Source: Deltaproteobacteria bacterium TL4 (GTDB lineage: Bacteria > SAR324 > NAC60-12). Taken from it: 10,178 nucleotides of DNA. The notes beneath the pieces were generated by a model. The model worked only from the letters and a program-made list of their open reading frames with translations, was not told the origin of the DNA and ran no database searches. The position numbers were made by a program, and so were the translations under genes. The stretch spans positions 1 to 10,178 of the forward strand of contig JBBCAX010000148.1 in NCBI GenBank assembly GCA_051382335.1. The letters run 5' to 3'. This document shows, piece after piece, positions 3,749 to 10,178 of this stretch; positions within the stretch are counted from its first letter, which is position 1; each line of letters begins with the position of its first letter.

Positions 3749-3775
3749 GTTCCCAAGCTGGAACTTGGGAACGAG
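3749..3775. repeat. CTCGTTCCCA-type REP-like hairpin
   Basis: GTTCCCAAG-CTGGAA-CTTGGGAAC-GAG. Near-identical copy at 8096-8123 and degenerate copy at ~7867-7894. Downstream of the HD-GYP gene, so possibly a terminator. Confidence 0.7.
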
Positions 3776-3811
3776 TCGGAAAAGTCCGCACGAAGTGCGC
3801 TAATTTAAAAA

Positions 3812-5815: not shown

Positions 5816-6012
5816 TCTCGTGATCAAAATCTCAAATCATTCACAAAATGACTCATGCTAAATTGTCTAACAATTTTAAACAACTTTGTAAACCGACAAA
5901 ACCAAAAAACGTTAATAATTATGCTGTTTCCTTTAATTTGGGGAAGAGGCGAGCAAGGCTCCCCTTCATCCACGGTTAAGGTAAAACTTTTCCACCTGTG
6001 CAGGTAGATATC

Positions 6013-6113
6013 TAGACTTTCAGATAAGTCTTTCCTGGGAGCGCGGGTATCCTGCCCGCAAAAGCAGGCGGGACGCCTGCGCTCCCAGCCCAAAATACTT
6101 TTCTGAAACACTA
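6013..6113. mobile_element. TA-flanked MITE-like element with GGAG-type REP doublet core
   Basis: Ends TAGACTTTCAGATAAGT / ACTTTTCTGAAACACTA. Core CTGGGAGCGCGGGTATCCTGCCCGC-AAAA-GCAGGCGGGACGCCTGCGCTCCCAG. Confidence 0.75.
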
Positions 6114-6212
6114 TAGATGTCCAGAAAAGTTCTGTCTCGGGGAGGGCGTATCGCCCTCCAGTGAGGGCAAGATACCCTCGTTCCCAGGAAAAAACTTATC
6201 GGGAATACTATA
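6114..6212. mobile_element. Second TA-flanked MITE-like element abutting the previous one
   Basis: Ends TAGATGTCCAGAAAAGTT / AACTTATCGGGAATACTATA. Core GAGGGCGTATCGCCCTC and GAGGGCAAGATACCCTCGTTCCCAG, similar to 455-558. Shares the CTATAG junction with the previous element. Confidence 0.75.
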
Positions 6213-6214
6213 TT

Positions 6215-6448
6215 AAGTGAGTTCGGGATAAGCACAAAGCTCTGAAGGCTTGACCAGAACAATTGTAGCTCCGATCTTTTTGAAGGATCATATATCATTC
6301 TGAGGAGAATAACAACGAAGACTCTGGCTTTTCCACCGAAAAAGATTCTTCGTCTATGGCTCAGAATGACAATGACAGAAGTTTTAAACAACCTCCAAGC
6401 TATAAAACAAGAGGGTTTGGAAGGTATTTCCGTATCCAGAACTCACGT
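6215..6448. mobile_element. MITE with ACGTGAGTTC-type (IS982-like) termini and 6-7 bp target duplication
   Basis: Left end AAGTGAGTTCGGGATAAG. Right end reverse complement ACGTGAGTTCTGGATACG. TATATT at 6209-6214 and 6449-6454. IS982 assignment is from memory of TIR style. Confidence 0.65.
6295..6370. repeat. GTCATTCTGAG-type palindromic repeat
   Basis: TCATTCTGAG (6295-6304) / CTCAGAATGA (6360-6369), with inner ACGAAGACTCT / AGATTCTTCGT pair. Confidence 0.7.
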
Positions 6449-6462
6449 TATATTAGGTGTTA

Positions 6463-6620
6463 GCGTTTAGGTCTTAGCCGGTGATTATCTGCTTTCAGCG
6501 CAAAAGTTAAGAGCCTTGTCATCCATAAAGTGTTTTGTTGAGTTTTTCACAAAAAACATGCGTTCGTAAACGTAAAAGGGTAGGAAATCACATCAGTGCC
6601 TCCGGCTAAAAGCTAAGAGC
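6463..6620. repeat. Imperfect 19-bp inverted repeat pair, possible decayed MITE
   Basis: GCGTTTAGGTCTTAGCCGG (6463-6481) versus reverse complement of 6602-6620, GCTCTTAGCTTTTAGCCGG (15/19). No target duplication. Confidence 0.4.
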
Positions 6621-6693
6621 AACCTACCTGCACAGCTCGAAACTCAGAGATTTTGTCATTTAATAAACGCTGGATTTTAGCGGGTTTGTAGAA

Positions 6694-6940
6694 AGGGTGC
6701 CGCTTAAGCGAAGCGAGCGCACCACTCACTCAAGGTAGGGTGCCGCTTAAGCGAAGCGAGCGCACCACTCACTCAAGGTAGGGTGCCGCTTAAGCGAAGC
6801 GAGCGCACCACTCACTCAAGGTAGGGTGCCGCTTAAGCGAAGCGAGCGCACCACTCACTCAAGGTAGGGTGCCGCTTAAGCGAAGCGAGCGCACCACTCA
6901 CTCAAGGTAGGGTGCCGCTTAAGCGAAGCGAGCGCGCCAC
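6694..6940 (+). repeat. Tandem array of a 43-bp GTAG-type REP unit, 5 full copies plus 32 bp
   Basis: Unit AGGGTGCCGCTTAAGCGAAGCGAGCGCACCACTCACTCAAGGT starts at 6694, 6737, 6780, 6823, 6866 and 6909. Linkers identical. Confidence 0.95.
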
Positions 6941-6984: not shown

Positions 6985-7740
6985 TCAGAAGGTTTTGGGC
7001 GTAAAGTTGGCGGGCGTTTCAAGAGAAAAGACTTCATCATGGATGGAGGCCAGATATAGACCCGATTGCAGCACGTCCTCTCTCACGGAAGACTCGGTAT
7101 CCACATAGACAACCATTCCCCGGATTGTTTTGTCGGAAAACTCCGGAAAAAACATCCGGAAGTTTTTCAGAATCTCCAGCGTTTGGTCCAAATCCCGTTG
7201 TTCCAGACGACTTTTGATTTCAATCACATACAACTCATTCACCGTCCCATTCGTATAGGCCACCGCGTCCACTTCCATATTCTTTCCCTCTTTTCTTTTG
7301 CGGAGACGGGTCAGAAAGGTATCCATCCCAAAGCGTTCTGTCATGATTTTCGAGATGGAGGGAAACGCCATTCCTTCGGTGAAGGAACCAAACTTGTTAT
7401 TCAAGCCTCCGATATTTTTTGACAATTCTTTGACAAGACGGTCCGTTTTAGCGAATTTTTCATTGAGCTGTCGGTCGGTTTCTTTGAGCTGTCGGTCGGT
7501 TTCCGCTGTTTTTTCCTTCAGCTCACGGCTGGTTTCTTTGAGCTGTCGGTCGGTTTCCGCTGTTTTTTCCTTCAGCTCACGGTCAGTTTCTTTGAGTTGT
7601 CGGTCGGTTTCCGCTGTTTTTTCCTTCATCTCACGGCTGGTTTCCTTGAGTTGTTGGTCAGTTTCTTTGAGCTGTCGGTCGGTTTCTTTTTGGGCGATTG
7701 CCAAGCTGGCAACCAGTTCTTTGAGTTCTTGATCGGTCAT
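6985..7740 (-). CDS. Coiled-coil repeat protein with C-terminal PD-(D/E)XK nuclease-like domain (DUF3782-like)
   Basis: KETDRQL repeats, IGGLNNKFGSFTEGMAFPS, MEVDAVA...VIEIKSRL, and GLYLASIHDEVF tail typical of this family. Confidence 0.88.
   Translation of the reverse strand: MTDQELKELVASLAIAQKETDRQLKETDQQLKETSREMKEKTAETDRQLKETDRELKEKTAETDRQLKETSRELKEKTAETDRQLKETDRQLNEKFAKTDRLVKELSKNIGGLNNKFGSFTEGMAFPSISKIMTERFGMDTFLTRLRKRKEGKNMEVDAVAYTNGTVNELYVIEIKSRLEQRDLDQTLEILKNFRMFFPEFSDKTIRGMVVYVDTESSVREDVLQSGLYLASIHDEVFSLETPANFTPKTF
7466..7689 (-). repeat. Intragenic coding repeats (21-bp and 54-bp periods)
   Basis: Three 54-bp units encoding EKTAETDRQLKETxRxL(K/N), plus 21-bp KETDRQL units. Confidence 0.85.
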
Positions 7741-7894
7741 AAGCCCTTTTCAGACAAGCGTTTTTTCAAGCGGGTGTTTTATTCCATTCTGACAAGAAAC
7801 TGGACGAAGAGCAAGCGGAATTTCAAAGCAGGGCATGGTTCAAATCAGGGTGACATCTTTTCTACTTCGTTCCCCTTCAAAGCATCGGAACGAG

Positions 7895-7999
7895 TATCGA
7901 GGTCCAAATAAATTTCTGCTGGGAGCGCAGGCGTCCCGCCTGCTTTTGCGGGCAAGATGCCTGCATTCCCAGGAAAGAACTTTTCTGGAGATCGCTACA
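7895..7999. mobile_element. Degenerate MITE-like element with GGAG-type REP doublet core
   Basis: Core CTGGGAGCGCAGGCGTCCCGCCTGC-TTTT-GCGGGCAAGATGCCTGCATTCCCAG (7919-7972), an inverted near-copy of 6035-6088. Right end AACTTTTCTGGAG resembles 455-558. Boundaries approximate. Confidence 0.65.
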
Positions 8000-8095
8000 A
8001 TCCGTTCTGTTACCTGAAAATGGACATTTTTGAACCATGCCCAAAGCAGACGCGGCTGGAGCCGCAGAGGAAAGGTTACAAGGCAAAGAGCAAAG

Positions 8096-8149: not shown

Positions 8150-8257
8150 TTGTAAGAAAGTGGTAGAAGGGGACTACGTGCCCCTCATTTTGCCGGGCAT
8201 GTAATCCCGGCCTACCAATTACTTTCATGCTTCGTTGTGAGACTTGTCTCATGGGGG
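8150..8257. mobile_element. 108-bp structured insert splitting a GTAG REP at its centre
   Basis: Left flank GTAGGGTGCCGCTT (8136-8149) and right flank TTAAGCGAAGCGAGCGCGCCAC (8258-8279) rejoin to the REP unit with TT duplicated. Confidence 0.7.
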
Positions 8258-8293: not shown

Positions 8294-8386
8294 AAGTAGG
8301 GTGCCGCTTAAGCGAAGCGAGCGCACCAGAAAGTCACCGTCCCCTTATTTGTGGTGCGCTCGCTTCGCTTAAGCGGCACCCTACTT
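8294..8386. repeat. REP doublet (REPIN-like): perfect 35-bp inverted repeat with 23-bp spacer
   Basis: AAGTAGGGTGCCGCTTAAGCGAAGCGAGCGCACCA (8294-8328) and its exact reverse complement (8352-8386). Confidence 0.92.
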
Positions 8387-8550: not shown

Positions 8551-8711
8551 CGAGCTGTGCAGGTGGTTTGAAAATTAACCACGAAAAACACGAAAAACAC
8601 GAAAGAAATGATTTTTTAATAAATGAATTCCTCCGTGAAACCCTATTTTGCAGGTTTTCTTTCGTGTTTTTAGTGTTTTTCGTGGTTTAAAAAAGGTACC
8701 TGCACAGCTCG
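8551..8711. mobile_element. MITE with perfect 14-bp TIR CGAGCTGTGCAGGT carrying an AACCACGAAA-type palindrome
   Basis: TIRs at 8551-8564 and 8698-8711. Inner IR 8577-8608 / 8656-8687 (31/32) built of 9-bp CACGAAAAA units. Another copy of the TIR at 6626-6639. No TSD. Confidence 0.85.
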
Positions 8712-8850
8712 AAAGATTTCAACAGTTGAACCGGTTCATGATGGACCAGCGCATACAGATTCACTTGCTGTTGATCCAGTTGATGCTTTTTACGATAATT
8801 GGACGCATGACCATATAATTCTTCTAAAGACACACCGATAAACGACTCCC

Positions 8851-8997
8851 GGCTTCAGGTCTAAAATGGGACAAGCGTAGGGTGTGTTAGCGAAGAATGA
8901 GCGTAACGCACCAAACTGATGTCATGTTTTCTGGTGCGTTACGCCTTGCGGCTAACGACACCCTACAATATGACTGTCCCGGCTTAGACCGGAAGCC
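8851..8997. mobile_element. 147-bp MITE, 23-bp TIR, 8-bp TSD, carrying a GTAG REP doublet
   Basis: TSD CGACTCCC at 8843-8850 and 8998-9005. TIRs GGCTTCAGGTCTAAAATGGGACA / GGCTTCCGGTCTAAGCCGGGACA. REPs at 8877-8913 and 8932-8966. Confidence 0.92.
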
Positions 8998-9147
8998 CGA
9001 CTCCCGGTGCGATTTAAACGAAATCAGATTATGGTCCTTCAACGGTTCAAAGGGGTGAAGGTATTCAGCGGGAAGAGTGTCCTGAGGGGAAGAGGAAGTC
9101 TTACGAACCACCGTCAAATCGATCAACTGCTTTTTGAACGATAAGTC

Positions 9148-9270
9148 GGGGTTGCCTCTAAGTTCGGCCATTTTGATGGTAGCCCTGGGTTTCGTCCCAG
9201 GGGATACTGCGCACATTGTTCCTCGGGGCGAAACCCGAGGCTACCCCTGGCCGAAGTTAGACCCAACCCC
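9148..9270. mobile_element. 123-bp MITE, 23-bp TIR, 8-bp TSD, carrying a different GTAG REP doublet
   Basis: TSD GATAAGTC at 9140-9147 and 9271-9278. TIRs GGGGTTGCCTCTAAGTTCGGCCA / GGGGTTGGGTCTAACTTCGGCCA. REPs at 9179-9202 and 9221-9244. Confidence 0.92.
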
Positions 9271-9444
9271 GATAAGTCAACCTCAACTTCTGTTTCATAG
9301 CCAAACCGCTCAAACATTGGTTGAAGTATCAAGCCCATCAAACGATGCCAATCTATTTTCTTGGTCAATTGAACTCCTGATCATGCTGCTGTTTGATACA
9401 CTATTTCTTGCCAGTTTCGCCTGACGCACTGGGTGCCCTTGTTG

Positions 9445-9696
9445 TCACAATTCGTTCGTATTTACCTTCTCAGAGTCTAAATATAGGGTATCCGGACAAA
9501 TATCCTGTTCGTGAGGCCACATTATGGTACCATCCCATGCTTTTACTTGTTTAAAATAGTTTTCGTCTTTCAATTCATTAAAAACACCAAAATCAAGTAG
9601 GCACGAACAGTCGTAAATTCCCTTTTCACCATTTGAAAAAATAAGTTCTAACTTATAATCAGCGATTGGTGTCACTACAGTCACTCTTGGATTCAT
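9445..9696 (-). CDS. DUF2442 domain protein (putative antitoxin, 83 aa)
   Basis: V..V.P..DYKL.L.FSNGE, GVFNELKDENYFKQV and GTIMWPHEQDICPDTLY pattern. Starts 2 bp downstream of the DUF4160 gene. Confidence 0.88.
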   Translation of the reverse strand: MNPRVTVVTPIADYKLELIFSNGEKGIYDCSCLLDFGVFNELKDENYFKQVKAWDGTIMWPHEQDICPDTLYLDSEKVNTNEL

Positions 9697-9698
9697 GG

Positions 9699-9968
9699 CT
9701 ACCTCAAAGGTTCAATTTTATAGGGCTGTTGTCCTGAAACAGCCAGGTCCCAATCGGCTACTAACTCATCTCTATGGATTTCAATCCATGCGTGAAGAAG
9801 TTTCATTTTTGGATTAGGGATATTTCCTTCCAGAATATCTCCTTCTGGAATTGAAAGGACTACTTCGTACTCTCGATATTTAGCATGAATGTGGGGAACG
9901 TTGTGCTGTTTATTGTCCTTAAAATACAAGTACACGATGATCCCATAAAACATTGAAATTGATGGCAT
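9699..9968 (-). CDS. DUF4160 domain protein (putative toxin, 89 aa)
   Basis: MPSISMFYGIIVYLYF...HNVPHIHAKY...WIEIHRDELVADW...KIEPLR. Start placed at ATG 9968, with GAGG RBS upstream, rather than 9995. Confidence 0.9.
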   Translation of the reverse strand: MPSISMFYGIIVYLYFKDNKQHNVPHIHAKYREYEVVLSIPEGDILEGNIPNPKMKLLHAWIEIHRDELVADWDLAVSGQQPYKIEPLR

Positions 9969-10178
9969 GATGACCTCATTTTTGTTTGGATACAACTTGT
10001 TACATTTTTTAACTATTCAAGGCTATAGTCATCGTTTCGCCAATGTCCCTTCGACTTGTATCTTGTTTTAATAACAAGGAATTAGTATTTTTGTTTAAGG
10101 AACCCAAGCGTTTTGGAGGAAAATAGATCGATTCGACTTAGTGATTCAATCACGTAGCGAAGCCTAGATCGTTTTCCT

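Follow-up and report, generated by a model that had tools for sequence, protein, structure and literature searches.

REP doublets and other palindromes enclosed in mini-transposons with insertion sequence ends in the genome of Deltaproteobacteria bacterium TL4

Most REP doublets and other palindromes of this genome reside in gene-less mini-transposons (MITEs) that carry the ends of many unrelated insertion sequences (IS). Since the doublets lie within these shells and were inserted together with them, they have likely spread by means of borrowed ordinary transposases and not by enzymes of their own; on sequence grounds, shell and cargo are likely to be moved in trans by the transposase of the matching IS. 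The hitch-hiking of REP hairpins in MITE shells proposed in a sequence-only reading of this DNA is upheld by the table of shell and cargo combinations, target duplications (TSDs), empty sites, and IS and cargo partners. The link between two mobility systems claimed in the same reading proved too narrow, as there are also non-RAYT cargos and one carrier without TIRs.

The window is the whole of contig C148 (10,178 bp) of a 6.59-Mb assembly of 445 contigs. Because many of the contigs terminate in repeats, most full-length IS copies are missing and the counts of paired elements are lower bounds. A genome scan for TIR pairs with a duplication, in which the interior was ignored, distinguished 18 shell families, and two further ones (S8 and S13) were seeded from the window. 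A profile search with these 20 families identified 442 paired elements, which were clustered into subfamilies. No Rfam match was found within the window.

Shelled and free palindromes of the window

Two MITEs (no strand is assigned to any of the elements and doublets described here) interrupt a hypothetical ORF of a multi-copy family, located on the minus strand at 8712-9368 and cut off at the 8551 element. The one at 8851-8997 is composed of shell S1, with 23-bp TIRs (8851-8873 and 8975-8997), and a GTAG...CTAC doublet, R1 (8877-8966; fold z -7.8), and is flanked by the 8-bp TSD CGACTCCC (8843-8850 and 8998-9005). The other, at 9148-9270, has shell S2 (23-bp TIRs at 9148-9170 and 9248-9270; 8-bp TSD GATAAGTC at 9140-9147 and 9271-9278) and a different GTAG doublet, R4 (9179-9244; fold z -4.7). 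Each cargo consists of two tagged REP arms in inverted orientation. Paralogues of the host ORF that are shorter by the insert and exactly 8 bp represent empty sites, three for the 9148 element and four for the 8851 element (one further paralogue holds the latter insert), which indicates that in both cases shell and cargo arrived as one unit. Exact TSDs flank 28 of 43 S1 pairs and 28 of 44 S2 pairs. The earlier description of TIRs around two different GTAG doublets was therefore correct. Paired copies, none with a transposase gene, number nine for the 8851 type, 25 for the 9148 type and 11 for the 8551 type.

Some variants of the 9148 element (C1:22528, C21:17126 and others) contain the same cargo, while one of their TIRs is identical to a now-abundant resident IS end, suggesting that shells are updated by recombination. 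A length of exactly 123 bp, as at 9148-9270, is shared by five subfamilies in five different shells, and one more is 122 bp long. Upstream of the interrupted ORF there is a DUF4160-DUF2442 gene pair (9445-9995), likely of the toxin-antitoxin type.

The element at 8551-8711 combines shell S8 (14-bp TIRs) with R13, a CACGAAAAA palindrome without the GTAG tag (arms at 8577-8608 and 8656-8687; fold z -7.0). The TIRs and the enclosed palindrome reported earlier were found again. Comparison with paralogues gave no TSD here, as the left flank of this copy is unlike theirs; within the S8 family, exact 8-bp TSDs occur in eight of 28 pairs.

A second S8 shell, with a TATTAG-type palindrome R15 (about 6451-6620), spans positions 5992-6639 and encloses three nested MITEs; this outer layer had been overlooked. 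Two of the inner elements, arranged in tandem (6013-6113 and 6114-6210), consist of shell S10 and an R8 doublet. The third is an S13 shell with R12 as cargo (TCATTCTGAG...CTCAGAATGAC); a palindrome in a TIR shell had been correctly recognized there, and its left boundary is better placed at 6216 than at 6215, since the interval 6216-6448 has a 7-bp TSD (TATATTA). A second copy of this element is also flanked by a 7-bp TSD.

The TA-flanked family of the sequence-only reading proved to be real: its members have IS630 ends and a TA duplication. Two details were revised: the inner doublets begin with GGGAAC or GGGAGC, and the first copy (S10 with R8) lies at 457-556. The main subfamily of this type comprises 86 paired copies. 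The member noted at 7895 is indeed an S10-type R8 unit (about 7895-7997), nested within a previously missed 210-bp S7 shell (7832-8041) that has an 8-bp TSD, CAAAGCAG, and seven empty paralogous sites.

One carrier of a GTAG doublet (R6; 8150-8257, 108 bp) has no TIRs; its insertion site is a TT core within an R3 REP arm. Among its 22 full copies 17 are located within the S1 right TIR, and there is one triple tandem. Its behaviour presumably resembles that of IS110-type or other site-specific elements. The pattern was present in one of 88 genomes (only this one) and in no viral contigs, and no partner was found.

Several palindromes of the window lie in no detected shell, i.e. an R3 GTAG doublet (8294-8386), a CCACAGAG-type doublet (1180-1250) and an R16 arm (3749-3781). 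R3 arms also form a six-fold tandem array of 43-bp units (6694-6940), which adjoins a multi-copy 251-aa ORF (6985-7740) whose N-terminal part is a repetitive coiled coil; cassettes similar to this one are present 10-19 times. At the contig ends there are the cut end of a palindrome-free 196-bp S20 MITE (1-130) and an S3 end with a broken R10 arm behind it (10021-10045).

Shell and cargo combinations in the genome

Motif-based assignment of cargos yielded 44 raw shell-cargo calls, of which seven were removed: five false ones produced by two 8-nt motifs, and two whole MITEs nested in another shell. The remaining 37 combinations involve 15 shells and 20 palindrome types, and 23 of them include a multi-copy subfamily. 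Eleven shells hold two to six different cargos each (six in the case of S1), and ten cargos are shared by two to five shells each. The tabulation suggested earlier thus revealed a many-to-many relationship, and multi-copy units with TSDs and empty sites were found.

The 17 motif families comprise 623 doublets, with 313 placed in a paired shell, 140 beside one shell end, 156 free and 14 at contig edges. As these motif families had been chosen from shelled copies, the count was repeated with the tag alone. Of 412 GTAG/GGAG doublets so defined (a block-shuffled genome contains 59 in total), 199 are in shells, 89 beside one end, 120 free and four at edges. The shells make up 1.06% of the genome, so that cargo lies in them more often than expected by chance, a comparison proposed in the sequence-only reading. 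Chance nesting does not describe these data, nor are the units single-copy or simple deletion derivatives of one IS. The types differ in this respect: R3, R6 and R16 are mostly or often free, and R4, R5, R9, R10, R13 and R15 have zero to two free doublets each. Unique sequence on both sides was found for 50 of the 120 free tag-defined doublets (50 of 412 overall), compared with the 59 doublets expected by chance; we consequently rejected a REPIN consisting of the doublet only as the unit of spread.

Interiors folding at z<=-3 were found in 34 of 47 MITE subfamilies, as against ten of 150 masked intergenic control segments. With five more recognized by motif, 39 subfamilies contain a palindrome and eight do not. 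Some of the palindrome-free ones amplify well (13, 12 and 23 copies), so cargo is no requirement, and neither copy number (p=0.84) nor length (p=0.26) differs with cargo. An effect of cargo on copy number was rejected on this basis; the earlier idea that hairpins are selected as cargo finds no support here. In 12 of 14 subfamilies, the REP arms show less variation than the linkers and spacers do (p=0.013), which fits selection and arm-to-arm correction (with no need for selection) equally well.

The cargo often begins 2-15 bp from both TIRs. Three palindrome-free shells (44, 59 and 70 bp) each occur once and have no matching TSD; the longest of them, of 70 bp, is a deletion form of a filled element of 200 bp. 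Three pure deletions derived from IS ends (241, 187 and 164 bp) are single copies as well. Nesting within another shell was observed for 28 of 437 elements. MITE lengths gave no signal of helical phasing at 10.4-10.6 bp (p about 0.2); the lowest periodicity p value among ten periods tried was 0.046, at 11.5 bp. Linkers as leftovers of older shells were dismissed as a general rule, as two of 42 with p<=0.05 correspond to chance level; suggestive single cases are S5/S12 with R8 and one Methylotuvimicrobium pair. When loci with identical spacer and linkers but no shell were sought as donors, the best free matches were mostly decayed shelled copies, or doublets of 74-90% similarity.

Partner genes and occurrence in other genomes

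The autonomous IS with shell-matching TIRs that had been anticipated were found, and they share only their ends with the MITEs. The partners belong to IS4 (S6), IS66 (S5 and S18), ISAzo13 (S12) and IS630 (S10); that of S20 is IS701-like, and those of S8 and S16 show weak ISKra4/ISLre2 matches. The 1904-bp IS with S8 ends (L032, C258:628-2531) contains two MITEs, one of type S11 and one of type S10, the latter reading through in the transposase frame. A paired MITE with a REP was present in three of the 13 IS loci inspected. No IS partner was found in the assembly for S4, S7, S9, S11, S13 and S14. IS1595 and IS256 were discarded as partners of the GG-ended shells, having one and zero matches, respectively, neither tied to those ends.

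Shells S1, S2 and S3 have related DUF6399 proteins of 530-570 aa as partners. The candidate transposase is a 548-aa ORF of a 1751-bp element, with DUF6399 among its Atlas neighbours and further Transposase_mut/ISL3 matches. The S3 ORF matches PF19936, while none of the S1-S3 DUF6399 ORFs has an NCBIfam transposase match. S2 is represented by 18+13 resident IS-like ends and a DUF6399-related ORF. The assembly contains only an IS remnant of S1, although full IS occur in other genomes; IS with 8851-type ends were noted at loci L080 and L209. The Atlas neighbours, together with what we take to be a D..D..D(2)H..E motif, suggest that the DUF6399 proteins are Mutator-like DDE enzymes. They lie between TIRs with 8-bp duplications (L080:175-1818, L208:446-2170, L029, L030 and L046), and DUF6399 appears to be an IS transposase family that has no name as yet.

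For most MITE ends the similarity to IS-like ends is limited to about 12-38 bp, so that the MITEs did not arise from resident IS by plain deletion; type I MITEs were rejected for the same reason, the interior having no IS homology beyond this length. Longer matches (50-83 bp) at seven ends were judged to be partial MITE copies, except for one (S17, 63 bp). By eye, the S1 and S2 linkers resemble IS subterminal sequence.

Several cargo types are also found next to genes. Resident RAYT genes are flanked by R2, R3 and R9 arms, and by R4-like and R8-like ones, and GxxExxY genes by CACGAA-type and R13-like arms. Eight RAYT-like matches were recorded, with NF047646 as the best match or with REP flanks. 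These two gene classes were thus found with cargo-type flanking palindromes, as the earlier reading expected; a GIY-YIG partner, also expected, was not, the sole GIY-YIG match in this genome being a 658-aa frame and not a small Ssn gene. Since a RAYT gene with R1 flanks was not found either, several cargos are orphans here. We take R10 and R12 to resemble Ssn-related repeats. A four-helix-bundle gene was rejected as the partner of R15, its single resident copy being flanked by other repeats, and DUF559, considered for R17, gave two weak matches. RAYT domains are also present in frame inside two long ORFs of 1207 and 628 aa (L005 and L012; C336 and C345), with R8-like arms inside the frame; the 628-aa ORF has a weak DNA methyltransferase match.

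In other genomes, the S1 end was detected in Methylococcales, Desulfobacterales, cyanobacteria and others, at 110 or more loci. Among the 80 loci examined, 24 were paired and 56 unpaired. Thirteen of the paired loci are short elements with an inner inverted repeat, one is a full IS, and ten have no inverted repeat by the pairing test; these ten comprise three empty shells of 62-71 bp, four palindrome-free MITEs of 124-125 bp (all in Desulfobacterales genomes) and three elements palindromic by eye. The 71-bp empty shell, from Methylotuvimicrobium, has a perfect TSD and can be a later deletion of a filled form between two direct repeats. In this set of 80 loci, S1 MITEs are often 124-125 bp long, with or without a palindrome, and their cargos mostly differ from those of the present genome. 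Within the phylum, S2 ends were found in three of 87 other genomes, one of which has R17-type cargo and another R5, and S8 MITEs with a related CACGAA core in one of the 87. The 9148 unit was not found in 40 relatives, where two weak core-only matches were recorded.

Origin of the shelled units and their relation to known elements

The excess of palindromes lies in independent origins of MITEs, pointing to a structure-based bias at their birth. Because cargo has no effect on copy number and palindrome-free families reach 12-23 copies, the bias acts at birth or first mobility, and because unrelated palindrome classes behave alike, we favour a filter on DNA structure (with a probability of roughly 0.5) over birth by the palindrome's own nuclease, neutrality, host benefit and an origin from eroded MITEs. 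IS end synapsis would be subject to a length limit; no relevant paper on such limits was found in the open literature. By its established chemistry, a DDE transposase joins the outer tips and cannot make the joint between the inner side of a TIR and the cargo, so this joint has to come from deletion, a template switch or a hairpin nuclease. We infer that a doublet, or a small element carrying one, would land inside an IS, and deletions would then trim the IS to its ends plus a few bases around the doublet. Nested states that may represent precursors are common here, namely the REP-bearing MITEs within IS loci and the elements lying in another shell, and the IS-like linkers of S1 and S2 also favour this route. 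Shells below about 80 bp would not spread, and among derivatives of 100-230 bp those with a long self-complementary core would most often become movable units, as the folded core probably lets two very close ends meet. Such a filter would depend on DNA structure at the time a unit becomes established; it would leave the later copy rate unaffected and work independently of the nuclease that originally served the palindrome (RAYT, Ssn-like or GxxExxY).

The palindrome's own nuclease (RAYT, Ssn-like GIY-YIG or GxxExxY) might instead cut single-stranded DNA next to the hairpin and join the doublet, together with a few adjacent bases, into or between IS ends, which would make the bias mutational and not selective. 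TnpA-REP cleaves 5' or 3' of REPs at a variable distance and performs strand transfer (PMC8266576), and this variable distance fits linkers that are short and of variable length; the cleavage site of Ssn is close to its hairpin (PMC11893778), eight RAYT-like matches are resident, and the excess is in origins, not copies. We nevertheless regard this route as rather unlikely, since several unrelated enzymes would have to give one outcome, Ssn-type cargos are shelled in a genome whose only GIY-YIG match is the 658-aa frame, and no common junction base was seen by eye in the S1 linkers. Were the units a neutral by-product, with the commonest small mobile DNA entering safe landing sites and deletions leaving doublets between IS ends with no filter, frequent nesting and copy numbers independent of cargo would be expected, and both are observed. 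Pure IS-deletion derivatives should then dominate, yet 39 of 47 subfamilies contain a palindrome, the three pure IS-end deletions are single-copy, and the cargo is often within 2-15 bp of both TIRs, so that we consider neutrality improbable.

A filter at the level of the host is quite doubtful. In this reading the doublet would cheapen insertions, either as a hairpin in RNA with a terminating or stabilising effect or as a site of protein binding, and REP-bearing MITEs would persist for this reason. Such roles of REPs have been reported (PMC3184786), the arms are conserved, and by a crude ORF mask both flanks are non-coding in 232 of 334 REP-bearing versus 27 of 57 REP-free copies. However, nesting in other repeats inflates the non-coding count, the copies in the window disrupt an ORF, and the predicted increase in copies per family is not seen. 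The reverse direction, with REPs as eroded MITE cores, as proposed for Coxiella QMITE2, appears very improbable. Erosion does release doublets, as indicated by the 140 of 623 that keep one shell end and by several "free" ones with decayed shell flanks. On the other hand, the same cargo is found in up to five unrelated shells, and cargo palindromes flank RAYT and GxxExxY genes with no shell at all, which argues that the palindromes do not derive from one MITE. As an origin this reading is largely refuted, and it stands only as a route to free copies.

A structural filter, which we prefer, would apply to elements that are a real, systematic variant of known parts. A MITE holding a minisatellite has reportedly been described in one paper. 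QMITE2 of Coxiella burnetii, a MITE of 150-190 bp, has TIRs and direct repeats of 7-11 bp and includes a GTAG REP; its shorter copies consist of the REP alone, which was interpreted as a truncated MITE (PMC5896051). In the available description QMITE2 is one family of one genus with no partner IS named, whereas in the present genome 15 shells and 20 cargos form many-to-many combinations, and both IS and RAYT partners are resident. The novelty as a general system assumed in the sequence-only reading is therefore tempered by this single printed precedent; no general description was found. Open PubMed Central and bioRxiv papers gave no many-to-many description, and ISfinder/TnPedia or subscription journals may mention composites. 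Type II prokaryotic MITEs are, like the units described here, short and non-coding, with TIRs and TSDs, and have only the ends in common with IS; in its accessible part, the review of these elements gives no source for their interiors (PMC10969869), while here a foreign palindrome doublet fills 39 of 47 subfamilies. How REPs spread has been called poorly understood (PMC8266576). The present genome offers one concrete answer to both questions, with most tagged doublets copied in IS-end shells, and the same objects can be recorded in REP counts, in studies of REP-RAYT co-evolution and in MITE catalogues alike. As a tentative possibility, long palindromic doublets may be a universal hinge by which IS-end pairs of 100-200 bp become transposable. 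In repeat-rich bacteria, REP, Ssn-type and GxxExxY-type repeats would then be copied mainly by DDE transposases from many families, and many "orphan" REP expansions, as well as many interiors of type II MITEs, may have arisen in this way.

The cores resemble REPINs and REPtrons with RAYT in being inverted pairs of GTAG- or GGAG-tagged arms (PMC3116915, PMC8266576, PMC3733652), and several match REPs flanking resident RAYT genes. Unlike in REPINs, what replicates extends beyond the doublet and generates target duplications, and the cores include non-RAYT palindromes. R11 fits by eye the published pattern of Ssn-related motifs of GIY-YIG nucleases; in contrast to that system, no small GIY-YIG gene is present here, and the words "miniature" and "transposable" are absent from the main text of the paper (PMC11893778). 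IS1397, IS621 and IS1111 insert into REPs (PMC3184786, PMC5896051), and the TIR-less element at 8150-8257, located in a REP arm, is like these cases. The shelled units have the opposite arrangement, with the REP doublet inside IS ends and copied along with them. A TIRtron, i.e. a Y1 transposase between long TIRs (PMC3733652), was rejected, as the shell ends flank DDE-type ORFs (putatively so for S1-S3); the RAYT genes of this genome are flanked by REPs.
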